DNA of 64,000 nt, taken from contig JALTLO010000141.1 in the NCBI GenBank assembly GCA_027001995.1, positions 41,753 to 105,752 on the forward strand, given 5' to 3'. Shown piece after piece: positions 1 to 18,944 of this stretch. The translations under genes were made by a program, and so were the position numbers. The notes beneath the pieces were generated by a model. That model had not been told where the DNA came from. It ran no database searches and saw only the letters and a list, made by a program, of their open reading frames with translations. The stretch is from Planctomycetota bacterium (lineage in GTDB: Bacteria; Planctomycetota; GCA-002687715; DRQF01). Position 1 is the first letter of the stretch. Each line of letters starts with the position of its first letter.

Positions 1-166
1 ACCCACTTCGGAGTTGGGCCCAGGAGTTGCAAGCGATCAGTCCCAACGTTGGTTTGCACAAAAAAATGCACTAAAACGTTGTGGGGCTTTTGTTTCCGCA
101 AGGAAGAACAACAGTCAAACTCGGGAAAATCAGACATACAAGTCTGTACATAGTGGAATATCCCTC

Positions 167-2386
167 ATGCCTGCAACTGTTTCATCGTCGGCCAGAACGA
201 ATCAACTGAAGGGTGGGCTGTTAACACCTGCGCCCCGGCACATGCCAACCTTGTTCACTCTCATCATCTTTTGGTGGGCCGCATGGATGTTGGCCCTGGT
301 TTTCTTGCCCTTTCTCGTCCACGCCCACCAAGACTCCTGGTGGTCTCTCCCCACCACTGTGGCCCTGATGTCTGCCATCATCGTGGTGTCTACGGGACAT
401 GGTGCCCTGGGTTACATCATGGGCTGCCGTACCGGAGGCAAAGTGATCAACTTCGTCTTGGGCGGACTCTTAGGTCCCATTGGCTTGGTCATTGTCCATC
501 TGATGACCAAAGACAAACCGGACCAACTTCCAGAGCCCTCCAAAGGGATCATGAAAACTCTCGATCGCTTGGCTTTCGCCTTAGGCAACCTTTGGTTTGG
601 CATCGCCCAGATCTTCCTCATGATCTGCTTTCTGATCCGCGCCACGATTTATGAGACAGAATTTGCCAGCCAAGGCAACGATGCAGCCTACGCTTCCTAT
701 TACAATAGCCCCATCTTTGGGCTCATCTTCCTCCTATTTTTCATGACTATTTACGCGGCGACCATGCGCAAGTACCCCTTCCGCTGGTCTCAAGCTGGAT
801 GGTTGGTGACCCACTTAGGTCTCCTCACCATGATGGTGGGTTGCATGGTCATGTATTGGGGAGGATTTAACGGTTTCGTCATGGTTCTCGAAGGTCACAC
901 CACTAGCTCGGCCTACAATGAGAAGGTCAACGACCTCGACATCGAGATTCCCAGCTTGGATTATCATGAGCTGCACCGTGTTTCCGTTGACTATGACCCG
1001 GAACAAGAAGACGTGGATCAAGAGATCCCCATCAAGATAAAGCACAATGGTTCATCTTACGATCTGAACATCAAGATCGATCGTTTCCTGTCCCGAGCCG
1101 AAAACTTCACAGAATTGCTTCCCTTAGAAAAGAACCAGATCAGTCCTTCTCGAGGACAAGCAGGGGTCCGCTTCAAACTCTCCCAAGGCGAAAAAAGCCG
1201 GGAAGACATTCTGCTGGAGAACACCAAGAACGGCAGTATGCCCTTAGGGATGTATCAATTCCAGGTACGCACTTACCCCCGCCAACACATCTTAGATTCC
1301 TTCGGCCATCGCTATGCACCAGACGACTTGAAACGAGGAAAACTCTTGGTCCGCAAAGACGGCCAAGTCATTGCTCAGGTGCCCGTCACCTTGGCATCCA
1401 CAGAGACTGCAGGCTCTGCTGGCCGCATGGTTCAAGGGGGCACAATCAAGCTCCCCAACGATGGACCAACCGTCACTGTTGAGCGTTATTACGCCACCTT
1501 GGGTTACGACAACAGCCAGATGGCCATGGACTCAGATCCGCGAACTGCGGTGAATCCAGCGGTTCTTGTTTCCATTGACGGCGCCAAGGGTCGAGAAGAA
1601 GTTCATGTACTCACAGCCCTTCCCTCCGTCACCCCTCAACCAAACGCCTACGGCTTAGAAGTCGAATATATCTGCACCGCAGAATTGGCTTTGAAACCGG
1701 GTTCGGCCATTTTTGCTTTGGGCCCCAACCAAAAGTGGTCTTTGACTCTCACCGGCAACGAAGGCACCCAACAATTCCCCTTGGAGATCGGCCGGAGTTA
1801 TCGCCTTCTCGATATCGACGTTACCCCTCTCCAGGTTTTGGCCCGTGCCACATCAGGTCAGTCCTGCCGCAAGTCGGATAGCTCCAACCCTTTCGCTGCC
1901 CTCCACGCCACCGTCACCCTGGACGGCGAGTCGCGAAAAATGTGGCTAACGAAAACAGGGCGCGCCAGGACACGTTTGTCAAATCATGAAATCGGTATCC
2001 AATACATCCCCAGAAAAGTACCCCTTGGATTCGAGATTAGTTGCTTAGATTTTCGCCACGAAAACTATGCCAACGATAGTCGCAAGGCGAAGACCTATGA
2101 ATCAAACTTAGTACTCCGTGATCCAAGAAACGGCGTCGAGGAAGCGGTCCTGGTGGATATGAACCATCCACTTTCCTATGCCGGTTACCAGTTTTTTAAC
2201 GGTTCGCCGGTTACCAATGAAGCCAGCCACGTCCGGGGTATTCAACTCACGGTGGGAAGAAACCCTGGATACGGCACCATCATCTTTGCTGGTATTCTGC
2301 TCTTCATTGGATTCATCATGGTCTTTTTCTTCAAGAAACGAATTCGCGACTGGGACATCAACCGCCGCAAAAAACAGAGCGCCTAA
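167..2386 (+). CDS. ccsB: Cytochrome c biogenesis protein, ResB/CcsB-like (system II)
   Basis: N-terminal TM helices with 'GWLVTHLGLL', large periplasmic domain, C-terminal 'VDMNHPLSYAGYQFF..RNPG' plus TM; directly upstream of ccsA. Start uncertain (ATG 167 chosen; track opens at 14). Confidence 0.8.
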   Translation: MPATVSSSARTNQLKGGLLTPAPRHMPTLFTLIIFWWAAWMLALVFLPFLVHAHQDSWWSLPTTVALMSAIIVVSTGHGALGYIMGCRTGGKVINFVLGGLLGPIGLVIVHLMTKDKPDQLPEPSKGIMKTLDRLAFALGNLWFGIAQIFLMICFLIRATIYETEFASQGNDAAYASYYNSPIFGLIFLLFFMTIYAATMRKYPFRWSQAGWLVTHLGLLTMMVGCMVMYWGGFNGFVMVLEGHTTSSAYNEKVNDLDIEIPSLDYHELHRVSVDYDPEQEDVDQEIPIKIKHNGSSYDLNIKIDRFLSRAENFTELLPLEKNQISPSRGQAGVRFKLSQGEKSREDILLENTKNGSMPLGMYQFQVRTYPRQHILDSFGHRYAPDDLKRGKLLVRKDGQVIAQVPVTLASTETAGSAGRMVQGGTIKLPNDGPTVTVERYYATLGYDNSQMAMDSDPRTAVNPAVLVSIDGAKGREEVHVLTALPSVTPQPNAYGLEVEYICTAELALKPGSAIFALGPNQKWSLTLTGNEGTQQFPLEIGRSYRLLDIDVTPLQVLARATSGQSCRKSDSSNPFAALHATVTLDGESRKMWLTKTGRARTRLSNHEIGIQYIPRKVPLGFEISCLDFRHENYANDSRKAKTYESNLVLRDPRNGVEEAVLVDMNHPLSYAGYQFFNGSPVTNEASHVRGIQLTVGRNPGYGTIIFAGILLFIGFIMVFFFKKRIRDWDINRRKKQSA

Positions 2387-2395
2387 GGAAGAATT

Positions 2396-4225
2396 ATGTC
2401 GAAGAAAAACAAACTCTACAGTGGCTTAGGAATCCTGGCAATTTCCTTCTGTTTGATCCTCATGATTGCCCTCATGGGACGATATGAAGCAACCAAGCGT
2501 TCATCCAAAGAGCAAAGCCAGCGCCAAGTGTTCGCCGAATTGGACGAAAAGCTCCATGATGCCGTTGAGAAACTCAAGCGGCTCCCTGTTCTCTACAAAG
2601 AACGGGTGCAACCCTTGGATACCCTGGCCCGGGGCGAGATTCGTCGTCTCTCCGGTCGTCGTGGTCTCTATGGCGCTGAAGGAGCCCTTGTTTTCTGCTC
2701 CATCGCATTCGACGACGACTTTGATTGGAAGAACACCCCTCTCTTCCTTGTGAGCCATGGCCGCAACAAGAAATTGCTAGGCATGGAGTCCACAGACAAG
2801 TTGGCCACGCTCAACCAGATCGCCGACTCAAAAGAATTCTGGGCCCTGTACCAAGAAAAACGAGCCAAATGGGCAGATAAGGCCAGTCGCGCCCCCCAAG
2901 TCGATTTTGAACTCTTTCGCTTGGCCGGCAATTCGACTCTCAAAGACACCCGATTCGCGGACGCATTCAAGATTGTACCGCCAACGGAGACCCAGGTTCT
3001 CTCTGAAAAGCCTGATCGGAACGATTGGCACTTAGTGAAAGATGCCCTCAGAGCGGGCCATGACAAGAAACTCGCCAACCAAATGCAGAAGGCTTTCCGC
3101 AAGCTGAAGACGTCTTGGCAGGAAAGAGACTCCGCGGGCATTATCGCTGCGGTAGACACTTTGCGAGAAACCGCCAGAGCCATGGAGCCAAAAGTGGGGC
3201 CAAACTTAGAGCTCACCGACGCGGCCATCGAGAACGAACTGTCCTACAACTCAATAAAACCCTTCACCAGAGCCTCTTGGTTCTTCGCCGTAGCCGCTGC
3301 CTTTGCGGTCTTCTCTATGGCATTTCATCTGAAGTGGTTGAGAGTCCTGGCCATCATCGTATCCATGGCAGGCTTAGGATTCTGCGTCTGGGGATTTTAC
3401 ATGCGCATCACTCTGGGATTCCAGATTGCTGTGACCAACCTCTATGAATCCATGATCGCAGTGGGATGTTTGAGCGTGTTGATGTTCCTCATCGTAGACT
3501 TGGTCCGGAAAACCAGTTGGGGACTTGCCTTCGGTGGCCTGACTGGATTCATGGTTCTGCAGATCGTCGATCTCAACTCCGTAAAATTCGATGATGGTAT
3601 CACCGGCCCCATGGCTGTGCTTGCCAACAACATCTGGATTCACATCCACGTCCCCGTTGTTATGAGTGCCTACTGCTTTTACGTCGTAGCGTTCCTCATG
3701 TCCCTCTTTGCCCTCCCTTGGATCCTCATCAAAAGGAATAAGGCGGATGAAGACCTGAAGGACATGCTCAAAATGAGTGACATTGCTGTAAACCTGGGCT
3801 CCGTCTTCATGCTCGCCGGGCTCATTCTGGGCGGTGTTTGGGCACAAGTTTCTTGGGGTCGTTTCTGGGGCTGGGATCCGAAAGAAACTTGGGGCCTCAT
3901 CCTATTCCTATGGTTCTTGGCTATTGTTCATGGTCGATTCACCAAGAAGATCAATGCTTTCTGGAATGCTTGGTTAGTGTTCTTGGGAGGAAACGTTCTC
4001 TTGTGGACTTACTATGGCACCAACGAACTTCTCAGTGGTCTTCACTCCTACGCCGGCGCGACTAGTGGTGAAGGATTCGTGGGCAACTTAGTCCATGAGA
4101 AGAACAGGTGGTTTGTCTGGACCTCTGGAACCATGTTTGCCATCTCGATCATCACTCTTTTGGCCTACTTGGCTATCACCAAGAAAAAGACTGCTGATAG
4201 AGACTTGGCAAAAGCTGTCCAGTGA
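2396..4225 (+). CDS. ccsA: Cytochrome c biogenesis heme lyase CcsA/ResC
   Basis: WWD motif 'WAQVSWGRFWGWDPKETW', 'IHVP' and 'GLHSYA' His ligands. Confidence 0.93.
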   Translation: MSKKNKLYSGLGILAISFCLILMIALMGRYEATKRSSKEQSQRQVFAELDEKLHDAVEKLKRLPVLYKERVQPLDTLARGEIRRLSGRRGLYGAEGALVFCSIAFDDDFDWKNTPLFLVSHGRNKKLLGMESTDKLATLNQIADSKEFWALYQEKRAKWADKASRAPQVDFELFRLAGNSTLKDTRFADAFKIVPPTETQVLSEKPDRNDWHLVKDALRAGHDKKLANQMQKAFRKLKTSWQERDSAGIIAAVDTLRETARAMEPKVGPNLELTDAAIENELSYNSIKPFTRASWFFAVAAAFAVFSMAFHLKWLRVLAIIVSMAGLGFCVWGFYMRITLGFQIAVTNLYESMIAVGCLSVLMFLIVDLVRKTSWGLAFGGLTGFMVLQIVDLNSVKFDDGITGPMAVLANNIWIHIHVPVVMSAYCFYVVAFLMSLFALPWILIKRNKADEDLKDMLKMSDIAVNLGSVFMLAGLILGGVWAQVSWGRFWGWDPKETWGLILFLWFLAIVHGRFTKKINAFWNAWLVFLGGNVLLWTYYGTNELLSGLHSYAGATSGEGFVGNLVHEKNRWFVWTSGTMFAISIITLLAYLAITKKKTADRDLAKAVQ

Positions 4226-4885: not shown

Positions 4886-6466
4886 CTACTTCTTTTTGAT
4901 GCGCGCAAATGCCTTCTTCAAATCAAGTTCCACGATAGCCGTATCAATACCATCAAAATCTTCCCGAAAGGCGTAGTTAACCGGGAAGTTCCCAGCCTCT
5001 AACCAATGATAGTCTCGTCGGGCGTCCTTGGGCCAAAAAATGTAAAGCTTCGAGAACTGGTTTTGAGAGTCGTAGAGCTGTTGCATCACTCGTTCATAGA
5101 GATCGGGGTGAAAGACATTGCTTACCATGGTGAAATTCGCATAGAAGCGCTGAGAACAAAGGCCTGATGCAGAAAGAACAAGATCGTTCTTTTCAAAACG
5201 ATCATTCATTTCCAAAGCGACAGTCTTCGGGTGTTCCCTGCGGTGCTCGTCGTGAAAATTGATAGCGGTGACAAAACCACCCACCACCAAGACGATCAAA
5301 AGAAGATAGGCGAACATCGGCCGCAAACTCCACCTGCCCCCAGACCCAGCCAAACGTCCTAAAACAATGGCCGTGGTCAATGCGAAGGCGGGCGCCAGCA
5401 TGATTGGCCAAAATTCATGGACAAAAGCATGGCCGTATGCTGCCCCAAAAGGGATGGCTCCAGCAATCAACAGGACAAGAGCGAAACGAAGCTCCCGACT
5501 CTGCTTTCCTCGCTTCCACAGAAGCAAAAGCAACCCCAGAGCCGAGACCAGGAGAACTGGCATTTGAATGAGTTCGGTAAAATGCCCACCAACCCGCGAA
5601 AACCAAATTTGAACCGCCTTGTCAGGGTCGGTGATAAGAGACGGTCCATAGGTTTTTGTTTGTCCCAGCACTGAATTCTTAGTCATGACGAGAAAGTCGC
5701 CGATCTCTTCCATGGAATTGGTGGAGGCCAAAGCAATCCAAAGCCCGGTGGTCACGAGTGAAATCCCGAAGGGCAGTCCCACGTAGAAGAACCTCATCCA
5801 ACTCCGATCTCGAGAAAACAACAAGTCGATCCACAAAGCAATAACGACAAAATAGACATGCCAGTCCATCATTCCTGCCAAAAACCCCACAGCCAAGTAA
5901 GCCCATAGGGAAGCCCTGGACTTCCGCCTCAAATGTCGAAACCAAAAGTAAGCTGTAGGAATCAAGAAAGGCATGCAGAAGACAACCGGATCAGCCATAC
6001 GCATAAACTGAACGATCACCGGCAAGGAGGCAAAGATCATGGTGGCGATGGCGGCAACGGGGATGCCATAGATTCTTGCGAGAAAAACACGCATCGAAAG
6101 AAGAGTCAGAACCATGACCAACAGCATGGCAAAATTGATGCTCGCCTCTTGCCCCCCTAATAAGAGATAGGAGGGATAGAGCAAGAAATAGAGAGTTGGT
6201 GGATGGTTTACGTAGCGTTGATAATAGTCACCATCTCCGGCGTGGTGAATGGTTGACGGAATGCCTCCGACGTTGAAGTACCCATGACGCTCAAAGCCCC
6301 GACAAGAATAGCCACAGAAATTTCCGCTATTAAAACCAGCATGAGACCCGTCCCAAGGTTCATTGAGCCACAGACACTGCAATACGATGGCGAACAGCAC
6401 AACGCAAAGCAGGAGGAGATCGAAGAAATGAATCCTCCGGGGATTTCTTTCTTCCTTTGAATTCAA
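4886..6466 (-). CDS. ArnT/PMT-like (GT-C, glycosyltransferase family 39-like) membrane protein
   Basis: Multi-TM protein with 'YVNHPP' loop motif typical of GT-C enzymes. Confidence 0.65.
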   Translation of the reverse strand: MNSKEERNPRRIHFFDLLLLCVVLFAIVLQCLWLNEPWDGSHAGFNSGNFCGYSCRGFERHGYFNVGGIPSTIHHAGDGDYYQRYVNHPPTLYFLLYPSYLLLGGQEASINFAMLLVMVLTLLSMRVFLARIYGIPVAAIATMIFASLPVIVQFMRMADPVVFCMPFLIPTAYFWFRHLRRKSRASLWAYLAVGFLAGMMDWHVYFVVIALWIDLLFSRDRSWMRFFYVGLPFGISLVTTGLWIALASTNSMEEIGDFLVMTKNSVLGQTKTYGPSLITDPDKAVQIWFSRVGGHFTELIQMPVLLVSALGLLLLLWKRGKQSRELRFALVLLIAGAIPFGAAYGHAFVHEFWPIMLAPAFALTTAIVLGRLAGSGGRWSLRPMFAYLLLIVLVVGGFVTAINFHDEHRREHPKTVALEMNDRFEKNDLVLSASGLCSQRFYANFTMVSNVFHPDLYERVMQQLYDSQNQFSKLYIFWPKDARRDYHWLEAGNFPVNYAFREDFDGIDTAIVELDLKKAFARIKKK

Positions 6467-6578
6467 TTCCTTGGTGTTCAGGGCACAATCCTTGAGAAAG
6501 AGCTATGATACCAAGAATTGTAGAGGCAAATGTAGGTCGAGAACAAGCCCCATATGAGAACCTTGTCATCGACGGTGC

Positions 6579-8162
6579 CTAACGGTTTAGACGATCAACC
6601 CAGGCAAACTTCAAATCCGCGTTGGAAACATCGAAATAGCTGATTCGCCCGTTGTCTTGAGAGTCCAAGGCCAAGGACGTGTAATTCCCCGTCAATCCCC
6701 CAGAATCAACAGTCAGGATTTCCCAGCGTCCCTTTGTTCCATAGGCGAATTTCAAAGCCCCATTGCCAAAATAGCTCACCGCTGGATTTCCCCGAGAATC
6801 GAAAGCCAAGGAGCACCTTTGCCCCACGGTTCCTTCAGAATCGATGGTTGAGAAACTCCACTTTTTCCCTGTCCACCTGGCGAACTTCAGACTTTCATTC
6901 GTGAGGTCAAAGTAAGTAATGGCTGGATGCCCGGCTTGATCTAAAGCCAAAGAGCAATGCAGACCGACTTGCCCTTTGGTATCAATCGCTTGAATATTCC
7001 ATTTGCCCCCATCCCAGCGCGCGAACTTAAGATCCTGCTTTCCTTCGTCGAAGTAGCTGATCATCGGATACCCGTCTTTGTCAAGTTGCAAAGAAGTGTA
7101 GGTCCCCACATCACCTTTGGAATCAACCGTTTCAACTAACCATCTCTTCTGAGCAGAATCCCACCGAGCCAAACGCAAGTCTTGGTCTTCTTTGGCAAAA
7201 TAGCTGATCATAGGGTCACCGGCAGCCGTGTAAGCCAAGCTTGTCGCTTTGAATGCTTTTCCTTGGTCGTCAACAACCTCCACCTTCCATTTTTTGCCAT
7301 CATAGCGGGCAAAACGGATTTCAAAATTGCTGTTTCCCCCGCCATAACTCACCCCAAGCCTGCCCTGAGGTGAAAATCCAACAGATGGAGACCAGCCAGC
7401 CTCCTTCCTGTCGACGTAGGTAGACTTCCAGGCCTTCCCAGACCAAGTCATCACCAGCAAAGCCCCACGCCCATAGTCCTTGCAGGCAACAATAGGTCGA
7501 TCCTTGGCAGCAACTGTTACTGTGGTAAAAAAACCTACACTTCCTTTGGATGCCAAAGTTTCGGTTTTGACAACGGAATAACTCAAAGTTGAAGTGGAAG
7601 CAGACTTCTTCGTCTTACTTGGCCGTGAGAGGCTTTTGGGCTGGGTGCCTTTCACAGCTTGCTCGACTGCAGCGACCACGTGCTGAAACTTGGACTGGGT
7701 GTAGCCCAATTCTCTTAAGACAATCTTGTGCTTCCGGTCGAGGACGACAGTTCGAGGAATCACCCCTTGAATCGTTAGCTTCTTCAAAGCCTTCATTTGT
7801 GGATCACGCCACTGCGGGTAGGTAATCCCGTATTTCTTCGAGAAGTCCTTGAGCCGTTCAGGTCCGTCCATCACGGAAACACCTAAGACCACGAGCCCAT
7901 CATTTTTGTATGCCTGCCAGACCTGGCGTTCGACTTGCGGAGCTTCCGCAACGCAGGTGAGTCACGAGGAACCCCAAAAAAGGAGTAAGACGGGGCTGCC
8001 AAGAAACTCATCGAGGTTTCGTTGTTTCCCTGAAGAATCCGTCAACGACAGATTCGGGATGGGATCGCCTACTGAGACGATCCAACCCTCTGGGTCCGCG
8101 ATTTGAGATCGTGCATATCCGCTAACAATGACCATGAACAAAAGGGTTCGGATCAGATTCAT
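6579..8162 (-). CDS. Probable selenoprotein: secreted TlpA/AhpC-TSA-like redoxin (UxxC) fused to a ~7-repeat beta-propeller-like domain, 527 aa with UGA read-through
   Basis: Track ORFs 7962..8162 and 6579..7892 are in frame and separated only by TGA at 7964-7962, giving 'LLLFWGSS-U-LTC-VAEAP..GLVVLGVS..GVIPRTVVLD'; hairpin follows the UGA. Confidence 0.85.
6590..7570 (-). repeat. About seven ~46-aa protein repeats (likely beta-propeller blades)
   Basis: Repeated 'VD..G.VG..SLA.D..G.P.ISYFD....LKFARW.G..W' in the translation. Confidence 0.85.
7921..7958 (-). promoter_or_regulatory. Candidate bacterial SECIS element
   Basis: mRNA ACCTGCG-TTGCGGA-AGC-TCCGCAA-GTCGAACGC-CAGGT: perfect 7-bp upper stem, lower ACCTG/CAGGT stem, apical loop 17 nt after the UGA with G at its second position. 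Confidence 0.7.
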
Positions 8163-8232
8163 GACAGCCTCTCCTTGACCGAGCAGTTTGAGGCGCCACG
8201 AGAAGCCTCAAGAAAAAGGGCAACATCGCGAA

Positions 8233-9741
8233 TCAGTTGTTGCGCTCACCCACTTCAATCTTGAGATCGATTTCTTTGTCACCACGTTCAACCTTAACTG
8301 AGACAACCTTGCCAATCCTGAGCGTTGGCATGACTTCCATGTAGGCCGCAAAGCTGTCGATATTCTTGCCGTCGATTTCGACGATTAAGTCGTCAGCTTT
8401 TAGGCCACCTTTGTCCGCAAGCCCACCAGTCGTGACAAACTTGACAAGGGCTCCTTCAGCATCTGACTCGTAATCTGGCATGAAACCTAAGGCTGGACGA
8501 GAACCCGGAGGGTTAGCTGGCAGTTCTTCCTCTGCCTGAGGACTCTTCGTGGCAAAGCCGGTTATCCACTCATTGACTTGCAATGAGAATCCATCCGTCT
8601 TCATGGCCGATTCCATTTTCACCAAGAATCCTGGGACTTTGGAACAACTCCAACGTTTCTTGACGATGTCACCATCTGAGAGGTGCTTTTTGGTCAGGGT
8701 GACAATACAATTGAGAGTTTTATTGCCTACCTTCACTGGCTCTGACAGCTTCAGCAATCGTGACCGAGAAAGGAGCTTGCCGTCCACAGTAAGTTCCCAC
8801 TTCAGGGGCAATTCGATGCCCTCAGCAACCCAAGCTCTTTGAACGGACTTCCGGTTTTTCCCCCGAACTGTGGCCTGCCATTCTTTTTGAATCAGCCTTG
8901 CCCGATATTTTTTTCCATCGAATTGAACTTCCTCGAAGCCTTTGAAAGTCGAACTCACTTGGGTGGGCATGGGTTGCTTATCTGTTGGCTTAACACCGGA
9001 CTTCCTTTCAGGGCCAAACGGAAAAATATCATGGGGCCATTGTCCCAATGCTCGTACGCCAACAATAAACTCTGGAGCGGGAACCGGGAGAAGAGCCGAT
9101 TCGACGATCTTCTTTTGGGGATTCGTGTGCTTAATCTGAACTGCGGAAGGACTTTTTTTTCCGACAGTCATCCGGGAGTCGGAGTCCCAAGATTGCTCCT
9201 GATCATTGCCCACTGTCATCTTGTGATTGGTATGGACATCTACCCACGCACCTTGGGGAAAAGAGCTCCAGGGATGAAGGTTTTGCCCATGGACAGGTTT
9301 GGAAGTCACGGGACTGGATGTCGTCGTGGGTCTTGAGGACGGGGAGGGCATCTTTTTTGTTGGGCCCCAAGTGCGCACAAAACTCACGATTTTCCAGGTG
9401 TCGTTCACCGAGTAGGCATCTTTGATGGCTGGCATCACGTCATTGCCAGTTCTTAGCTTCCAAAAGACCGCCCCATCTGTTTGACCACCTAAGACTGACT
9501 TGAGATTCTTCGGCTTCCTCTTGAGTGCCCCGGCGGCGAAACCATCCCCGGCACCAGTTTTCCCGTGACAAATCGAACAGGCACGCATGTACATCTTCTT
9601 GCCTTCAGCCAATACTTCTGGGGAAGACTTAAGAGGGTTTTTCTTGGCAGCAGCTTCCGCAGGAGCCTTCCAACTATTTTGGGCAAGAGAAACCTGCGAC
9701 AAGGCGAGGAAGAGAATCGAGAGGCTTAGAACTATTCGCAT
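8233..9741 (-). CDS. Secreted c-type cytochrome - unknown domain - PDZ fusion protein
   Basis: Signal peptide, 'CSICH' heme motif with distal 'MP', C-terminal PDZ 'LGFMPDY..GGLADKGGLKADDLIVEIDG'. Confidence 0.8.
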   Translation of the reverse strand: MRIVLSLSILFLALSQVSLAQNSWKAPAEAAAKKNPLKSSPEVLAEGKKMYMRACSICHGKTGAGDGFAAGALKRKPKNLKSVLGGQTDGAVFWKLRTGNDVMPAIKDAYSVNDTWKIVSFVRTWGPTKKMPSPSSRPTTTSSPVTSKPVHGQNLHPWSSFPQGAWVDVHTNHKMTVGNDQEQSWDSDSRMTVGKKSPSAVQIKHTNPQKKIVESALLPVPAPEFIVGVRALGQWPHDIFPFGPERKSGVKPTDKQPMPTQVSSTFKGFEEVQFDGKKYRARLIQKEWQATVRGKNRKSVQRAWVAEGIELPLKWELTVDGKLLSRSRLLKLSEPVKVGNKTLNCIVTLTKKHLSDGDIVKKRWSCSKVPGFLVKMESAMKTDGFSLQVNEWITGFATKSPQAEEELPANPPGSRPALGFMPDYESDAEGALVKFVTTGGLADKGGLKADDLIVEIDGKNIDSFAAYMEVMPTLRIGKVVSVKVERGDKEIDLKIEVGERNN

Positions 9742-9771
9742 TTGACGTACCTTCTGTGATTCGATGGGGGT

Positions 9772-10245
9772 TTAATTGGAATCAAGGCTCCGAAGCCTTT
9801 TGGTTTGCTCTGGAGTCAACACATCCCTGACAACCAGAATGGAACCAACCCAAGACTTGAACTGTTTCGAACGCATGGCAGAAATTCGATCGGCCAGCTG
9901 AAGGACTTCTTGTTTGTCTGCGGGATATTGGGAAAGCAATTCCTGCAGTTGGGCAGATGATTCGTCGATCTCACGTGCCAAACGGGTACGCAACTCAAGA
10001 CTCGTCAAAGAGCAACTACGTATTTGCTTTCGCTGTTCTTCGCTGAGCTCAAGTAGCTCCAAAGTCGGACATGGATTGCCGCTATTGCCGGGTGCCAAAT
10101 GAAACGACCGCACAGAGTCGGTTTGAGACGCTGGTGCCTTGATTTCGTGCTCCGCCTTCTGCCCCCGATACCAGGACAAATTTGCATATGAACTTGCCAA
10201 GAGCGCTCCGAACAAGATCCAAGGGCCAAGAGATCGCATCATCAT
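9772..10245 (-). CDS. Spy/CpxP-like periplasmic sensor or chaperone
   Basis: N-terminal TM, 'LELSEEQRKQI' and 'VLTPEQ' LTxxQ motifs. Confidence 0.75.
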   Translation of the reverse strand: MMMRSLGPWILFGALLASSYANLSWYRGQKAEHEIKAPASQTDSVRSFHLAPGNSGNPCPTLELLELSEEQRKQIRSCSLTSLELRTRLAREIDESSAQLQELLSQYPADKQEVLQLADRISAMRSKQFKSWVGSILVVRDVLTPEQTKRLRSLDSN

Positions 10246-10766
10246 TACCTACCTCCTAAGAGCTCACTCATCAGCCGCCCTTCAGGTCTGCGGCGAAGAG
10301 CAATGAAATGAGATTCGAATGATCCGCCGAGCTCCAAGCTTGACTCGGATTCGATCACCAAAGATTGGAAAGTGGGAGCCACACCAACCGTACTCTCTGC
10401 TGGGGAGCTCAAAGCCGACTGCATCAGCCAAACCGATGACATCCCCAGAACCACTGCAGCGACTCGATAGAAAATAGGTGGCCATGGTGACTTAGGTGCC
10501 CGTGGATTCCTCTTGGCAGCCAATGCATTGGCGAGCACCATCGATCTCATCCCGACAGGGGCTGACTGGGATGACGCTCTGATTTGCCGCCCCAATTCAG
10601 CGATCACTTCAAAGTTCTCCCGACAGGGCGCACATGTGTCTCCATGCAATTGCATCTCAATTTGAGCAGCACTTGGAAGTTCTCCGTCAACGAAGGAGCT
10701 CAAATATTTGTTGTACTCATTGCAGTCCATTGAATGCCTGACATGTGGGATGTTGATTTCATCCAA
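10245..10766 (-). CDS. Anti-sigma factor with zf-HC2 (ZAS) domain
   Basis: 'C..Y..YLSSFVDGEL..HGDTCAPC' HxxxCxxC, one TM; follows the ECF sigma gene; alternative start 10730. Confidence 0.85.
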   Translation of the reverse strand: MDEINIPHVRHSMDCNEYNKYLSSFVDGELPSAAQIEMQLHGDTCAPCRENFEVIAELGRQIRASSQSAPVGMRSMVLANALAAKRNPRAPKSPWPPIFYRVAAVVLGMSSVWLMQSALSSPAESTVGVAPTFQSLVIESESSLELGGSFESHFIALRRRPEGRLMSELLGGR

Positions 10767-11388
10767 AGTTTAAGAAATTTATCCCGGATTTCTTCGCCAG
10801 AGCCAATAGACTCCCCCGAGCCCGGGTGAGGCGAGACGTCACCGTACCCGGCGGAACATCCAGGATTTCAGCCAATTGGCCATAACTCAGCCCTTCGATT
10901 TCACGCAAGACAAGCACCTGACGCTGGGAAGAAGGAAGCAGCTGCAGCAATTTGAAGAGTTCTGATTCGTCTTCGAGGGCAATGGTCTCCTCCACCGGGC
11001 CAGCCATACGGCTCTTCGATTCGAAAGATGTTGGGCCTGAAATCCGCCGTCGAGCGGTCTTGGCGCGAGCAAAATTGCGAGTGTGATTGGCAGCTAGCCT
11101 GAGAACCCAAGACGTAAAGTTCGCCTTCCCGGAAAACTTGTTTGCCTTTTCGAAGATGCGCATGAAAATTTCTTGAGTAGCATCTTCGGCATCACTTCGA
11201 TTTCCCAGTATGCCATGACAAACGCGAAAAATGCGATCGCCATAGACCCGAAAAACGAGATCCAGGGCTGAGATATCACCGGCCTTGAGGCGCAGAATTT
11301 CGTCATCTGAAATCGTCGATGGAATATGGGGGGAGCCGTCTGGCTCGCCGGGTTTAGTGCTCACTGGACCACCATCCCCACCAGGCAC
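10759..11388 (-). CDS. ECF RNA polymerase sigma-70 factor
   Basis: 'DAEDATQEIF', 'FTSWVLRLAAN', region 4 'LREIEGLSYGQLAEILDVPPGTVTSRLTRAR'. Confidence 0.93.
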   Translation of the reverse strand: MPGGDGGPVSTKPGEPDGSPHIPSTISDDEILRLKAGDISALDLVFRVYGDRIFRVCHGILGNRSDAEDATQEIFMRIFEKANKFSGKANFTSWVLRLAANHTRNFARAKTARRRISGPTSFESKSRMAGPVEETIALEDESELFKLLQLLPSSQRQVLVLREIEGLSYGQLAEILDVPPGTVTSRLTRARGSLLALAKKSGINFLNFG

Positions 11389-11538
11389 TCATGCATTCTC
11401 GCCTAGTTGCCAATTTTCGCATGTTGAGGTTTTCCATGGCCAATGATTCCATCGCTGTAAGTCAGTCCAGCCGAGGCTTTGGCGCACCGCTCTGTGCTGT
11501 CTCAGTGAAAAAAGCAAAGCACAAAGCGGTGAGCTCAG

Positions 11539-12492
11539 TCATTTCTTCCGAGGTTGTTGAACAACGATCATCGAAGAAATATTCGCAGAACCTTCCAAAG
11601 AAACCTTGGCGCTTCCATGGCCGGTCTTCAAATCACCAGCGGCAGTGACAGGGCCTTTGACCCCCACGCTTTGCACCCAAAGCGTATCCAGCGCAAGAAC
11701 TAATTGCCCACTGATGTCACTTTCAACTTTCAATCCTTTGGCTTCGATCTCCGATGAATCAATCTCAAGCTTGAGATCAAAGATAGCGCATGGGACTCCA
11801 AGTACTCGCTTCTTCTTAACGAGAGTCAAAGTCATAGAGCCAAAGTTATTCGACGAATCGTTGACTCCTAGCAGCCGCCGAACCGCTTCCTGGTCGACTT
11901 TCACATTCTCCCCCACCGCCATCTCCCGGGCACCGACAATTCGGTCCATCTCAAAGTAGGGGCTGAACAAGACACCACTCTTCAGGTTTTCGCCAAACTC
12001 CTTCTCGATCGCCGCCAGTTCTTCCTTCGTTGCATCTTCGTTTGAAGAATTTTTCGCGACGAGCGATCCCTTCGAGCAATCCAAGGTAAAGGTTTTACCA
12101 ACAAGAGGAAAGTCCTTGTTCTCGTTCGAATCACCAAGACTCGTCATGGACTTCTTGGTTTCTTTCATCGTCTTAAACGTGACTTTCGCCCGCACAATCC
12201 CTTTCTCATTAGCAGCGAGTACTTCGAAGATCGTGATGCGCTTCGACTTCTTGTCTTCCGATCTTTCCTGCACAGTTTCGCCCATCTCAAACACCTGCTT
12301 TGCGGTGCTATGAGAGTCACGGGCCATAGTGAGAGTCGCGCCTTTGGAGAGAATGGCTTTCTTGAATTTGAGCTGTTTTTGGCCAGCAGCAAGAGACGCC
12401 ATGCATGTGAATATGAGAAAAAGGACAACATGTTTGTTCGTATTGATTTGCATTTCGGACTCCATTCCGGGTGAATTTCGAAGCAGATTCAA
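11539..12492 (-). CDS. Secreted hypothetical protein, paralog of 27896..28819
   Basis: Signal peptide-like N-terminus; colinear similarity to the 27896..28819 product; start uncertain. Confidence 0.7.
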   Translation of the reverse strand: MNLLRNSPGMESEMQINTNKHVVLFLIFTCMASLAAGQKQLKFKKAILSKGATLTMARDSHSTAKQVFEMGETVQERSEDKKSKRITIFEVLAANEKGIVRAKVTFKTMKETKKSMTSLGDSNENKDFPLVGKTFTLDCSKGSLVAKNSSNEDATKEELAAIEKEFGENLKSGVLFSPYFEMDRIVGAREMAVGENVKVDQEAVRRLLGVNDSSNNFGSMTLTLVKKKRVLGVPCAIFDLKLEIDSSEIEAKGLKVESDISGQLVLALDTLWVQSVGVKGPVTAAGDLKTGHGSAKVSLEGSANISSMIVVQQPRKK

Positions 12493-14707: not shown

Positions 14708-16444
14708 TCAAGAAACTTGTGGGAGAGAAACGAAAAATGTCGATCCTTTGCCACAGGTACTGTCCAGCTCGATGCGACCTCCATGGGCAATGACACAGTT
14801 CTTGACAATGGCGAGGCCCAAACCTGTGCCCCCCACTTGTCGAGAACGGGCCGCATCAACGCGGTAGAAACGTTCGAAGATTCGATCTTGATGTTCAGCG
14901 GCGATGCCCTCGCCATCATCTTTCACCATGAAGGTGACGCAGCCATTCGTTTTGGTCAGGGCCACCTGAACTCGTCCACCAGCAGGGGTGTACTTCAGAG
15001 CATTCAAAATCAAGTTGTCAAAAACACTCTTAAGAGCTCTTCGGTCACCCAAGACGCGGACATCCTCTATGGGCTCCACCAACTCCAGAGAAACACCTTC
15101 GGTTTGAGAAGCCATGGTCAAAAGAGAAACACTTTCTCGGGCCAGGGCACCTAACTCGAGGGGTTCCATATTAAGATGTTCATCGCCGGCCTGAAGTCGG
15201 GAAAGCTCGAGGACATCGTTAATCAAGCCGTCTAAGCGCATGGCATTTTGAACGATGCGGCCAACAAATCGTTCTCGTACCTCAGCAGGCATCGATGGGT
15301 CACCTTGGATAGTCTCCGCCGCTCCTTGAATTGCGGTCAAAGGCGTCTTTAATTCGTGAGAAACATTAGCAACGAATTCTCGCCTCATGTTTTCCAAGCG
15401 GTGAATCGTGCTCACATCTGACAACAGGCAAACAGCGCCTTTTGTGCTCTTCATTTCGTCCCTCAGTGGCGCAATTTGGAGTTCTACCCAAAGCCCTACA
15501 GATTCAAATTCCAGTTGGGCAGAAACAAGAGTGCCGGAAGAGATTGCTGAGTCAATCTGCTCTTGAATCAATGGGCCACTGGAAAGTTGTTCCGTGGTGG
15601 ATGGGATTTCGCCATGGGCTTCCACCCCAAGTATCTTCTTAGCTGCTTCATTCATGAGAATGATCTTGTGGTCAAGATCAACGGCCATGAGGCCTTCGCC
15701 CATGCTTGCCAAGATCGTCTCTAACTCTTTCTTGTTGCGGGCGCCTTTCTGGATGCGGGCCATCAATTCAGCGGCGATGTCTTTCAGGGCTCGAACGCAC
15801 TCATTCAATTCCCAACTGGAAAGAATCGGTGGACGTTCTTCATGGGCACCAGCAGCCAAAGAGACGATGTAGTCACGCAAACGCTCGACTGAGGCTGCCT
15901 GATGTTTCGCCAAGAAAAACGTGCCGATAATCCCAAGGAAAAGGACAAGAGCCCCACCGATGAGCAAACTTCCTCGTACAGACTCACTTCTGGACAAGGC
16001 ATCGGCCAAAGAGATTTCTGTTCGCAGGAAACCGATGAGCTTCTCGTCCACCCGCAAAGATTGAACCAAAACAAGCGACGAAGCGGGCTCCCCCCGTGGA
16101 TGCCAACCTTCACCCTTCTCTCCTGCCATGCGAAATTCTTCACTGTCCAAGAGGGTCGGTCCCGGCGACTCTGAGAATTCTGCACTGGATATGAACTCCA
16201 CCGGCCCTTCCATGGCGAAATGCCCGAGCGTTTCACGTCCCGCTTCACTCAGTTCTCCATTCCGAATTTCGGGAATCAGGCGCTGTGCGCAAGACCGGAG
16301 CTGAGAGAATGCTATGGATCGCTCTGGCCCAAAAGCGCCAGCATCCTCGATCAAGAGCGCGATCACCCCGAACAATCCCACGACCATTATGAGGAGGGCA
16401 GAATAAGTCCTGGTCTGGCGGATGACTTCACGATCAATTCTCAT
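14708..16444 (-). CDS. phoR: PhoR-like sensor histidine kinase (HAMP-PAS-HisKA-HATPase)
   Basis: 'EFVANVSHELKTPLT', 'NALKYT', 'IFERFYRVD..RSR..GGTGLGLAIVK'. Confidence 0.88.
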   Translation of the reverse strand: MRIDREVIRQTRTYSALLIMVVGLFGVIALLIEDAGAFGPERSIAFSQLRSCAQRLIPEIRNGELSEAGRETLGHFAMEGPVEFISSAEFSESPGPTLLDSEEFRMAGEKGEGWHPRGEPASSLVLVQSLRVDEKLIGFLRTEISLADALSRSESVRGSLLIGGALVLFLGIIGTFFLAKHQAASVERLRDYIVSLAAGAHEERPPILSSWELNECVRALKDIAAELMARIQKGARNKKELETILASMGEGLMAVDLDHKIILMNEAAKKILGVEAHGEIPSTTEQLSSGPLIQEQIDSAISSGTLVSAQLEFESVGLWVELQIAPLRDEMKSTKGAVCLLSDVSTIHRLENMRREFVANVSHELKTPLTAIQGAAETIQGDPSMPAEVRERFVGRIVQNAMRLDGLINDVLELSRLQAGDEHLNMEPLELGALARESVSLLTMASQTEGVSLELVEPIEDVRVLGDRRALKSVFDNLILNALKYTPAGGRVQVALTKTNGCVTFMVKDDGEGIAAEHQDRIFERFYRVDAARSRQVGGTGLGLAIVKNCVIAHGGRIELDSTCGKGSTFFVSLPQVS

Positions 16445-17145
16445 CCCTGTCCCTTGCGCGGGGCAAATCGATAGCCCACGCCCCGCACAGTCTCAATCAC
16501 AGAACGCCGATCACCCAACTTCTTCCGAATCGTTTTGACATGAACATCAACGTTGCGATCCATAGGAAGCATGGGTTGCCCGATGGCTTTAGCGCTGATT
16601 TGTTCGCGACTGAAAACCCGCCCTGGCTGGGAAGCCAAGAGTTGGATGATCTTGAATTCCGTAGCAGTGAATTCAATCGTTTGACCATCAACTTGGATCT
16701 CATGGCGAACTGTGTCAATGAGGACACCATTAGCTTCCAGGCGCTCACCGCCACCACTATTGTTGCGGACACCAACCCGACGCAAGACGGCCGCCACCCG
16801 GGCCATAAGTTCTTTCGGCCGAAATGGCTTGGTGACATAGTCATCAGCGCCCAGTCCCAAACCAACAATAGCGTCGGATTCTTCGGCTTTGGCAGTGACC
16901 ATGATGATAGGGATGTCTTGGGTCAAGGAGTCGCGTCGTAATTCGGTGCAAATCTCTGTCCCGGAAAGTCCGGGGAGCATGAGATCGAGAAGAATGAGAT
17001 CCGGGTTTTTTTGCCGCGCCAATGCCAAACCTCCCTCCCCATCAAGGGCTTTGTAGCAGCGATATCCTTCGGCCTCCAAGTTGTAAACCAGGATTTCAAG
17101 AATGTCGATTTCGTCTTCTACGACCAGAATGGATTTCTTGCTCAT
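16441..17145 (-). CDS. phoB: PhoB/OmpR-family response regulator
   Basis: 'ILVVEDE..DLILLDLMLPG..GADDYVTKPF' and winged helix 'IETVRGVGY'; start reassigned to ATG 17145. Confidence 0.88.
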   Translation of the reverse strand: MSKKSILVVEDEIDILEILVYNLEAEGYRCYKALDGEGGLALARQKNPDLILLDLMLPGLSGTEICTELRRDSLTQDIPIIMVTAKAEESDAIVGLGLGADDYVTKPFRPKELMARVAAVLRRVGVRNNSGGGERLEANGVLIDTVRHEIQVDGQTIEFTATEFKIIQLLASQPGRVFSREQISAKAIGQPMLPMDRNVDVHVKTIRKKLGDRRSVIETVRGVGYRFAPRKGQG

Positions 17146-17334
17146 GCTTCGGTTCACCCGTGTCACATCAAAGAAGACTGATCCTTTCAGTCCCGTGTAA
17201 GGATAGAGTAAAGATGGGGTGAAATGTTGCCCCGAGCGTGTTTTCGCCAAGAAGTTGGCAAAATGTCATCAATCCTCTCGACCAAATCAGAGGGTGAGGG
17301 CCCCTCAGCCCCAAATTCCTGAGGGAAGTCTTCA

Positions 17335-17522: not shown

Positions 17523-18944
17523 ATGAAAATGAAGAACTTTTCGTGGGCCGTGGCCATTTCTCTCACCATCGTTGCTTCGTTGTCGGCACAAGAGCCAGAC
17601 ACAAGAGTTGATGAACTCTTACTACGGATCAAGACCCTCGAAAACCGCATCGTAGACTTGGAAGCCACAAGCTTGGAGAACCCAAGTACGGAATTGGAGA
17701 AACAACTCAATGCCCTCACCACTGGGGCCCTGGGAGACAACAACGAATTCACCTCCCGCTGGGGAAATACCAGACGATTCGAGACCCCAGACAAGGCTTT
17801 TCAGCTAAAAACTGGAGGCCGAATCATGAATGATTGGGTCTGGGGATTTCAGGACAATGACTATGAAAACGCCGTAATCTCGGATGCCGCTAATGCGCCC
17901 CTTGGCCGTTTCGCCGATGGAACAGAATTTCGTCGGGCTCGGCTCTACATCAGCGGCACCATTTACAGCCGCGTTGTTTTCAAGCTCGACTTCGGATTCG
18001 AAGGAGGCGATGCTGACTTCAAAGATGCCTACATTGGCCTCAAGAACATTCCATGGGTGGGAAAAATCCTCGTTGGACAATTCAAGATTCCTTTCGGTCT
18101 CGAGTACATGACAAGTTCTAAGCATATCACTTTCATGGAAAGAAGCATGGGTTCGGACGCCTTCATCGCAGACCGTGGTACCGGCCTCAAGTTCGTCAAC
18201 ACTGCCTTGGAAGATGATCGACTGAGCTGGTCCGTCTCCGTCTACCGGGAAGCCGATACATTCGGATCAACCAAAGTGCCTTCCGATGGCCAATACAACT
18301 TCGCCGCTCGTATAACCGCCTTACCCTGGTGGGAAAATGCTGGAAGACGCTACTTACACGTCGGTTTCGCCGCGAACTGGCGTAATCCAGCTCAACCAGG
18401 CAACGGCCTCTCTCAGGTACGCTACCGTTCGAAACCCGAAGTTCACCTATCTCCCCGCGTGGTCGATACTGGCAACTTCGAAGCAGAAAGCGCCCTCTTG
18501 TTGAACGCAGAGGTTGCCCTCGTTATCGACTCCTTCTCCCTGCAAGGAGAATTCTACTACGCCGACGTTTCCTCGAAGGCAGGAAACGATCCCACCTTCT
18601 CCGCGTTTAACGTCTACGCCAGCTATTTCCTTACTGGCGAGCATCGCATCTACAAGAAATCCGCTGGTGCCTTCAACCGTATCAAACCAATCCACAATTT
18701 CCTCGATGGTGAAGGTGGTATCGGTGCTTGGGAGATCGCCGCCCGATTCTCGATGATCGACCTCAACGATGGCAATATCAACGGTGGCGAAGCTTGGAAC
18801 ATCACTCTGGGGCTCACCTGGTATTTGAACCCCAATACCCAGGTGAAACTAAACTACATTTATACCAACCTGGACAATCAAGTGGCTGGGTCACAAGAAG
18901 GTGCAGCCCACATCATTGGCATGCGCTTCCAAATCGACTTCTAA
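17523..18944 (+). CDS. OprO/OprP-family phosphate-selective porin
   Basis: Signal peptide, 'GTEFRRARLY', 'GQFKIPFGLE', 'GAWEIAARFS', C-terminal Phe; divergent from phoBR. Confidence 0.9.
   Translation: MKMKNFSWAVAISLTIVASLSAQEPDTRVDELLLRIKTLENRIVDLEATSLENPSTELEKQLNALTTGALGDNNEFTSRWGNTRRFETPDKAFQLKTGGRIMNDWVWGFQDNDYENAVISDAANAPLGRFADGTEFRRARLYISGTIYSRVVFKLDFGFEGGDADFKDAYIGLKNIPWVGKILVGQFKIPFGLEYMTSSKHITFMERSMGSDAFIADRGTGLKFVNTALEDDRLSWSVSVYREADTFGSTKVPSDGQYNFAARITALPWWENAGRRYLHVGFAANWRNPAQPGNGLSQVRYRSKPEVHLSPRVVDTGNFEAESALLLNAEVALVIDSFSLQGEFYYADVSSKAGNDPTFSAFNVYASYFLTGEHRIYKKSAGAFNRIKPIHNFLDGEGGIGAWEIAARFSMIDLNDGNINGGEAWNITLGLTWYLNPNTQVKLNYIYTNLDNQVAGSQEGAAHIIGMRFQIDF

Follow-up and report, generated by a model that had tools for sequence, protein, structure and literature searches.

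Redoxin selenoproteins in which selenocysteine (Sec, U) opens a UxxC motif are included in a 2026 catalogue of 119 families, where Table 1 lists a 'Redoxin family protein' (PF08534) and a 'Prx-like thiol:disulfide oxidoreductase' (PF00578), both with UxxC, together with a 'Thiol-disulfide isomerase-like' entry (cd02966) (PMC13188914). A 2008 study described fusions between thioredoxin-fold selenoproteins and further domains (PMC2398784), there are reports of extracellular selenoproteins (bioRxiv 10.1101/2022.07.06.499078), and a thioredoxin-like domain followed by an NHL beta-propeller is known from NHLRC2 and SOQ1 (PMC6107167; bioRxiv 10.1101/2024.11.01.621559). The gene considered here occupies positions 6579-8162 of the minus strand of a 64,000-nucleotide (nt) stretch of a Planctomycetota genome (GCA_027001995.1, contig JALTLO010000141.1), the whole of which is referred to as the window. 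The two seemingly broken genes found there are almost certainly parts of a single gene, in which a selenium redox domain is joined to a seven-bladed propeller in a rare combination, and what is new is that one face of this propeller is conserved blade by blade in the Sec-redoxin fusion.

With the catalogued UxxC redoxins the protein shares its Pfam domains past cut-off, UxxC at the canonical position, a UGA with a hairpin and a host competent for selenocysteine insertion, whereas it differs in its C-terminal seven-bladed propeller and in having S-S-U-L-T-C for the usual (T/S)-W-C-G-P-C; no propeller fusion stands among the table entries of PMC13188914. A description of this fusion was not found in the literature, in which the BSepDB database and supplements and Fig. 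S1 of PMC2398784 ('Unknown_1-3') could hold it; the BSepDB main text mentions neither propellers nor fusions nor planctomycetes. The first-pass annotation did not recognise the architecture as described, which agrees with the literature searched as regards this exact fusion, but not as regards its ingredients, as UxxC redoxins, their fusions and the combination of thioredoxin with a propeller are known.

The domain order is that of NHLRC2/SOQ1, and 6gc1 and 7djk align over about 570 columns of the full model. However, those proteins have six NHL blades and a CC(I/V)NC motif, as against seven non-NHL blades and ULTC here, and the 13% identity, root-mean-square deviation (rmsd) of 14-15 Å and template modelling (TM) score of 0.34-0.37 indicate a different arrangement; moreover, selenocysteine is not reported in the part of PMC6107167 available here. 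At most by analogy could the fusion protein work like NHLRC2/SOQ1. ResA, TlpA and CcmG resemble the redoxin domain in fold (TM about 0.85 to ResA), active-site position, proline loop and export, but the present protein has an apparently cleaved signal instead of a membrane anchor, selenocysteine and an extra domain, falls under the NCBIfam cut-offs and shows no conserved link to ccs genes. In DipZ (Rv2874), a thioredoxin-like domain is joined to a carbohydrate-binding module (PMC7479077). The order of an extracytoplasmic thioredoxin-like domain and then a binding module is shared with the fusion protein, and PDB 2hyx is among its sequence matches, although the module is not a propeller and the motif is Cys-Ile-Asn-Cys. 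DipZ also has a DsbD-like membrane part. Finally, the lectins PLL, PHL and BP39L are seven-bladed and are the closest PDB folds to the propeller, but at 13-16% identity, with no profile match at E <= 1 and with another pattern of conserved positions.

The redox half of the protein is ordinary, and the selenoprotein call is mainly a correction of annotation. In contrast, the repeat belongs to a family without a solved structure or known function that usually serves as a generic surface module, and a conserved face tethered to a selenocysteine nucleophile offers a concrete place to seek a substrate.

A reading frame with a single internal TGA

Translation of window positions 6579-8162 on the minus strand gives 527 codons followed by TAG, with the TGA at 7964-7962 (codon 67) as the sole internal stop, in the context FWGSS-[TGA]-LT-C-VAEAP. 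Gene calling under translation table 11 yields a fragment of 66 amino acids (aa), on record as P0125, and a 437-aa open reading frame (ORF) that starts at GTG 7892, and codons 67-90, both active-site residues included, fall in neither. The Pfam domain AhpC-TSA matches residues 31-148, across the TGA, with 72.2 bits (cut-off 26), and Redoxin reaches 60.2 bits (cut-off 26.6). The arrangement goes beyond chance, because the AhpC-TSA match spans the TGA and the TGA column is Cys in homologs. The first-pass annotation had described two ORFs parted only by an in-frame TGA at the redoxin nucleophile, a fold that continues unbroken and includes 'IPRT', a 527-aa product with selenocysteine at codon 67 and a gene that standard annotation would split in two, all of which agrees with the translation, the Pfam match, the IPRT at residues 135-138 and the 66-aa and 437-aa pieces. 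Its reading of the motif stands as regards the TGA at the Cys column, but the residue before the site departs from the family, being Ser here and Trp in 38 of the 42 full-length homologs of alignment A4. The gene and the elements around its TGA are as follows.

6579..8162, minus strand: whole gene, 527 aa, with one in-frame TGA read as selenocysteine (translation, Pfam, structure model)
8162 (ATG) and 6581-6579 (TAG), minus strand: start codon and final stop
7962..7964, minus strand: TGA codon 67, predicted selenocysteine that opens U-L-T-C and sits at the N-terminal end of helix 68-88
7953..7955, minus strand: Cys70, resolving residue, whose codon changes synonymously in a 92%-identical relative
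7935..7951, minus strand: candidate selenocysteine insertion sequence (SECIS), 17 nt after the UGA, with a 7-bp stem and a 3-nt loop AGC (G at position 2), -8.1 kcal/mol
7916..7927, minus strand: weaker second hairpin, 38 nt after the UGA, with 4 bp and a GGUC loop, -3.7 kcal/mol, as an alternative SECIS
8168..8176, minus strand: Shine-Dalgarno-like purine-rich site 5-13 nt 5' of the ATG, seen directly, of presumed function

Predicted selenocysteine at codon 67

A redoxin comparison set of 148 representatives was drawn from a 50%-cluster library, and the site could be aligned in 146 of them; in 144 of these the TGA column is the first Cys of CxxC, and columns 67 and 70 are both Cys in all 42 full-length homologs of A4. 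In addition, the genome contains the complete insertion machinery, with selA (455.9 bits), selB (334.3) and selD (357.2) past their cut-offs, as is the tRNA-Sec with its UCA anticodon; selA, selD and selC are adjacent, selD has an in-frame TGA of its own, and selB exceeds its cut-off in 23 of the 23 genomes of the host class. Both checks recommended beforehand, the alignment of homologs and the search for selA/selB/selC/selD, came out in favour of selenocysteine, the insertion of which at codon 67 is, on the evidence as a whole, very nearly certain.

The codon was also followed in related contigs, as the first-pass annotation had proposed for other sequence data, and no change at it is listed in contigs from other runs. 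Four sequencing runs were compared over 7560-8260, three of which gave contigs (X4 gave none), the comparison being one of contigs and not of raw reads. A contig of X2 (record 3), which shares its study with the possible source, spans 7881-8031 and shows 0 differences. Moreover, a 6240-nt contig of X5 (record 8), from another study, aligns over 606 nt with 47 differences (92% identical) and shows no listed change at 7962-7964, where the neighbouring Leu68 and Cys70 codons change synonymously; since X5 differences of the same depth but much closer to the contig end were displayed, and the sole counted T>G lies at 7626, codon 67 is taken as unchanged in it. Among the listed X5 differences, 12 of 15 upstream of the TGA (p 3e-4) and 17 of 23 downstream (p 8e-5) are at the third position of a codon. 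Three more X5 contigs and one X3 contig, all more diverged, align only around the UGA and the hairpin, and their loose ends, read by hand, stay in frame; one of them matches P0003.

Five clusters of fusion homologs (93, 63, 63, 60 and 59% identity) carry the C-terminal half of the redoxin and the propeller in one frame, and all five are called from after residue 67, at 98, 77, 90, 91 and 92, that is, from five different starts, which suggests that they too have a TGA at the site. The redoxin half of the fusion proteins is as conserved as the propeller, with 35 of 73 positions invariant, whereas none of the 25 linker positions is. Every fusion sequence found in the protein collection is without its active site. 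Close homologs carrying Cys had been named as one refuting case, and no full-length fusion member with Cys was found in the homolog searches; with the 66-aa fragment as query, only its own cluster was recovered.

Alternatively, the TGA might really end translation, with a misassembly or a nonsense mutation in a CxxC gene having produced a pseudogene or a propeller translated on its own. More long ORFs of this genome end in TGA than in any other stop (681 of 1652), only one change separates TGC or TGT from TGA, and the gene is patchily distributed. Nevertheless, this explanation is scarcely credible, as the codon is unchanged in X2 record 3 and without a listed change in the 92%-identical contig of the other study, five homologs down to 59% identity are all cut past the site while no Cys fusion was found, and the internal starts differ in every homolog.

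The catalogued model of bacterial SECIS elements requires a hairpin 16-37 nt past the UGA, with G in the first two loop positions and a stability of <= -7.5 kcal/mol (PMC13188914). The first hairpin satisfies this model (spacing 17 nt, loop AGC, -8.1 kcal/mol), with a loop that lacks the usual G[G/U]. The same test is also passed by 39 of 1030 TGA codons that are true stops and by 45 of 1499 Cys codons, a background rate of 3-4%. The loci of this genome and its relatives include 16 redoxin sites with TGA and 14 with Cys in the catalytic column, of which 7 and 1, respectively, pass (p 0.04). SECIS evidence for codon 67 is supportive, not decisive. One relative no longer has the second hairpin (as read by hand from the loose end of X5 record 12). 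As to loop sequences, candidate SECIS loops of this genome are often purine-G-U-pyrimidine (GGUC, AGUU, AGUCU), with spacings of 19-34 nt; the first hairpin departs from this pattern, and the GGUC loop of the second resembles those of three other redoxins in the genome.

Several points weigh against selenocysteine at codon 67. Only 7 of the 16 TGA redoxin sites pass the SECIS test, which is therefore neither necessary nor decisive, the hairpin region is no stabler than shuffled sequences (z between -0.18 and -1.09, with 0.64 for the longest region), and no Rfam match to it was obtained at E <= 10. Furthermore, the state of the codon was read from contig difference tables only, in which 14 X5 differences were not displayed, and one undisplayed and unplaced T>G in X3 could in principle fall in codon 67. 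The upstream third-position signal comes mostly from the signal peptide, with mature codons 21-66 contributing only 4 of 6 (p = 0.10).

A redoxin profile run over the TGA-read-through frames of this genome gave 18 redoxin-like frames, the 8 best-scoring of which all have TGA at the catalytic position and correspond to seven UxxC genes, one with two such sites, and one TxxU peroxiredoxin. The seven genes besides the fusion lie on contigs C43, C58, C68, C76, C105 (two) and C138, and five of them have clearly signal-like N-termini; the C68 gene encodes two UxxC domains and so probably contains two selenocysteines. With selB in 23 of 23 genomes and eight TGA redoxin-type genes in this one, most with signal-like N-termini, the host class looks rich in selenoproteins; no paper on this class was found in the literature. 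A 101-aa 'TlpA family' protein from Acidobacteriota (P0138, RMG51546.1), 46% identical and starting just past the CxxC position, is probably a Sec redoxin from the same subfamily, free-standing and truncated by annotation. Codon usage gave too noisy a signal for picking out read-through TGAs (80 of 5624 TGA vs 59 of 2540 TAA and 47 of 2312 TAG). TGA-ended frames of 57 codons at C177:70300-71500 of this genome, with similar ones on C150, C158 and C193, were rejected as selenoproteins, those on C177 being the antisense of a stop-free repeat protein. This repeat protein is presumably FG-GAP-like.

Domains and the conserved face of the propeller

Beyond the active site, the protein is divided as follows.

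8106..8162, minus strand: probable Sec-pathway (secretory) signal peptide, residues 1-19 (by eye, hydropathy, and helix 2-16 in the model)
7650..8090, minus strand: ResA/TlpA-type redoxin domain, residues about 25-171 (Pfam, ResA structures)
7749..7760, minus strand: I-P-R-T loop with the thioredoxin-fold proline Pro136 (A4, fusion proteins)
7575..7649, minus strand: Ser/Thr/Lys-rich linker, residues 172-196, with 0 of 25 positions invariant and a predicted local distance difference test (pLDDT) score < 50 at 182-190
6591..7580, minus strand: seven-bladed beta-propeller with a blade-specific conserved face, residues about 195-524

Residues 1-19 comprise a basic N-region, a hydrophobic core and A-x-S ahead of Gln20, with no lipobox Cys, and this hydrophobic N-terminus and the hydropathy profile make it very likely that the protein is exported, apparently with cleavage of the signal peptide. 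The redoxin domain matches ResA structures by sequence (E 1e-12) as well as by fold, and combines Pfam scores past cut-off with a thioredoxin fold, (C/U)xxC at a helix start and a proline loop, in which Pro136 is Pro in 41 of the 49 other A4 rows and invariant in all six fusion proteins. It scores under every NCBIfam redoxin cut-off, the best match being ResA (NF002854; 68.1 vs 170), ahead of WAxxUGC_long (24.3 vs 300) and SelL_rel (16.8 vs 120), and it has weak Prx-type matches. The linker contains 8 Ser, 4 Thr and 4 Lys in its 25 residues.

A structure model from a 50-sequence alignment reached a pLDDT of 88.5 and a predicted TM score (pTM) of 0.82. It shows a thioredoxin fold at about 25-171, with residue 67 opening helix 68-88; the linker has low confidence, and each of the seven blades has four strands. 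An earlier model from a shallow alignment had left the redoxin unfolded (pTM 0.67), and the value of 0.82 was obtained once both domains were folded; alignment A2, in which redoxins were forced onto the propeller, was left out. The propeller consists of seven repeats of 45-49 aa, modelled as 28 strands. Of the proposals in the first-pass annotation, the Ser/Lys-rich linker is recovered at residues 172-196 and the approximately seven blades in both the repeat analysis and the model, and export is made likely by the N-terminal stretch read by eye and its hydropathy.

The closest folds to the propeller are seven-bladed lectins, namely PLL/PHL (E about 1e-16) and BP39L (Z 32.3, rmsd 2.6, 310 aligned residues), with identities of 13-16%. 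CylK (Z 31.9) scores level with BP39L, as does Vgb lyase (Z 30.3) with PLL (30.4); since the fold scores of lectins, CylK and Vgb lyase are so close, the fold gives no function. In Pfam, BNR_4 (PF15892; 21.3 vs 27.3) and DUF7253 (18.9 vs 25.1) both stay under cut-off, and they match 14 and 15 of 27 propeller relatives, respectively, at E <= 0.01, the level at which NHL gives no match. A profile of 27 propellers found no clear relative in the PDB, touching a fucose-binding lectin only weakly (E 0.12) and PLL not at E <= 1, and its matches to designed TIM barrels were taken as repeat artefacts. The repeat is a mobile module of 5-14 blades, seen attached to sorting tails and to PKD, FN3 and kinase domains, with a single occurrence in this genome. 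Many 7-, 14- and 21-blade copies of the repeat are present at loci L064-L091, in phylum genomes mostly of families f35 and f50, and no redoxin accompanies any of them.

Among the fusion proteins, the strand-A start and the B-C loop of the blades show invariant residues that differ from one blade to the next. These positions presumably form one face round the mouth of the channel, as in standard propeller anatomy. Five fusion sequences (the near-identical P0002 left out) were compared with five sorting-tail propellers of similar divergence, with mean identities of 0.66 and 0.61, respectively. Invariant face positions number 39 of 61 in the fusion set and 6 of 57 in the control, whereas invariance over all columns is close (138 of 286 vs 106 of 265) and the opposite loops show no difference (14 of 58 vs 28 of 74). 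The residues lining the face are F211, F212, W257, K305, Y355, H402, R449, N493 and Y494. This pattern suggests, at the level of sequence, a specific binding site rather than a generic scaffold, and the propeller probably has a specific binding role. Some considerations count against such a role: the face columns were picked after the invariant residues were known, the sequences are kin, so that the p-value overstates the difference, and the 'top face' comes from general propeller anatomy and not from model coordinates.

The face also bears on two other explanations of the propeller. According to the first, the selenoprotein is the same, but a propeller of the PLL/PHL lectin type would tether the reductase to glycans of the envelope, in the manner of DipZ, as could be suggested by the PLL/PHL and BP39L folds, by the weak contact of the profile with a fucose-binding lectin (E 0.12) and by a PMT_2 glycosyltransferase-like gene next on the same strand. 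The sugar sites of PLL lie between adjacent blades and are repeated round the ring (PMC6943638). In the present propeller, by contrast, the residues conserved at the strand-A start and the B-C loop vary from blade to blade, and with an identity of only 13-16% and CylK and Vgb lyase tying in fold score, a lectin anchor seems improbable. According to the second, either the propeller is a generic inert scaffold derived from domain shuffling or the redoxin is a Sec peroxidase instead of a reductase. The repeat is indeed a common module on sorting tails, PKD, FN3 and kinases, among others, the redoxin has weak Prx-type matches, and the ECF sigma, anti-sigma and Spy-like genes upstream suggest envelope stress; but the conserved face is peculiar to the fusion set, and the motif is UxxC, not the TxxU form of Prx that the genome encodes elsewhere, which makes this a distinctly poor candidate.

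Proposed function and genomic setting

The reading preferred here, and considered somewhat probable as a whole, is that of an exported Sec/Cys thiol-disulfide reductase that would be fed by DsbD/CcdA and whose propeller would bind a particular substrate or envelope partner. Ribosomes would start at ATG 8162, SelB acting on the hairpin just past codon 67 would deliver Sec-tRNA, and translation would go on to the TAG at 6581-6579, after which the product would be exported and its signal peptide removed. Sec67 would be the exposed nucleophile, attacking a substrate disulfide or other oxidised sulfur, Cys70 would resolve the mixed selenenylsulfide, and a membrane carrier of the DsbD/CcdA type would re-reduce the redoxin. 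The propeller could act as the specificity module, with its conserved aromatic/basic pocket on one face and the B-C loops binding the particular substrate or partner and keeping it near the redox site. Reductase chemistry with DsbD as donor is likely, and the DsbD-family gene present in the genome is a possible electron source. On the other side, pTM is no test of docking, and neither of the two congeners searched (83% and 89% complete) has the gene.

A bolder version, which is tentative and rather unlikely, takes the protein as a two-domain periplasmic selenoenzyme, convergent on the NHLRC2/SOQ1 plan, with the redoxin docked over the conserved face. This face might then hold a specific small or anionic substrate (K305, H402 and R449 with the aromatics) for reduction by Sec67, and the lack of the usual Trp before the active site might reflect the docking. 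If true, the protein would provide a compact model for the NHLRC2 cleft and a substrate-targeted reductase hidden by annotation.

Upstream of the fusion gene, on the same strand, lie genes for an extracytoplasmic function (ECF) sigma factor, a zinc-finger anti-sigma factor, a Spy/metal-resistance-like protein and, directly adjacent, a cytochrome c/PDZ protein, and downstream a PMT-type (PMT_2) glycosyltransferase-like gene follows on the same strand. ResB-like and CcsB-like genes of System II cytochrome c maturation are located at 14-4225 on the plus strand, 2.4 kb away, and after them comes a gene that, by eye, looks endonuclease III-like. This neighbourhood, with a cytochrome c/PDZ gene directly upstream and ResA as the best NCBIfam match, could indicate a ResA/CcsX reductant of cytochrome c maturation that serves the nearby resB-ccsB and the upstream cytochrome c. 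However, the ResA score of 68.1 is far under the cut-off of 170, and ccsB is found in 23 of 23 class genomes while the fusion is in 1 of 23. Relatives keep the order resB-ccsB-nth-[12817 gene]-[13406 gene] without the block that holds the fusion gene, which looks inserted, and in G001 the ECF operon is located elsewhere, with transporter genes following the cytochrome c/PDZ gene instead. Furthermore, only 2 of 12 ccsB regions of relatives have a thioredoxin-fold match, neither of them closely related to this redoxin. The ResA reading was rejected on this synteny and would be surprising.

The block at 4886-12492 separates nth from the 12817 gene, two genes that adjoin each other in relatives, and is a probable insertion or relocation. 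It contains, besides the fusion gene, the glycosyltransferase-like, cytochrome c/PDZ, Spy-like, anti-sigma and ECF sigma genes and a gene for a 317-aa protein. The cytochrome c/PDZ gene (8233-9741, minus strand) encodes a 502-aa exported protein with a cytochrome c domain, an unassigned middle region of ~250 aa and a PDZ domain, and among the 23 class genomes only G001 has a full-length match to it. In L150 (G014:C7), the CCINC motif of NHLRC2/SOQ1 occurs in a thioredoxin-like gene close to ccsB, near locus position 18030 on the plus strand.

Among the 23 class genomes, the fusion is present in this one and was not found in the other 22. It was likewise not found in a 400-genome sample of the phylum, with 3 candidates scored per genome, nor in 4, 2 and 339 genomes of three other classes, sets that lack a positive control. 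None of 41 propeller loci has a redoxin and none of the 148 redoxin representatives has a blade, and a search for DNA loci gave one propeller-only locus in genome contigs, 10 in metagenome contigs and 0 in viral contigs, with no fusion in any of them. A promoter and terminator scan gave results at chance level. Farther along the window, a porin-like gene (17523-18944, plus strand) is divergent from a response regulator/histidine kinase pair (16441-17250 and 14708-16444, minus strand), a layout that, by eye, resembles a phosphate regulon.

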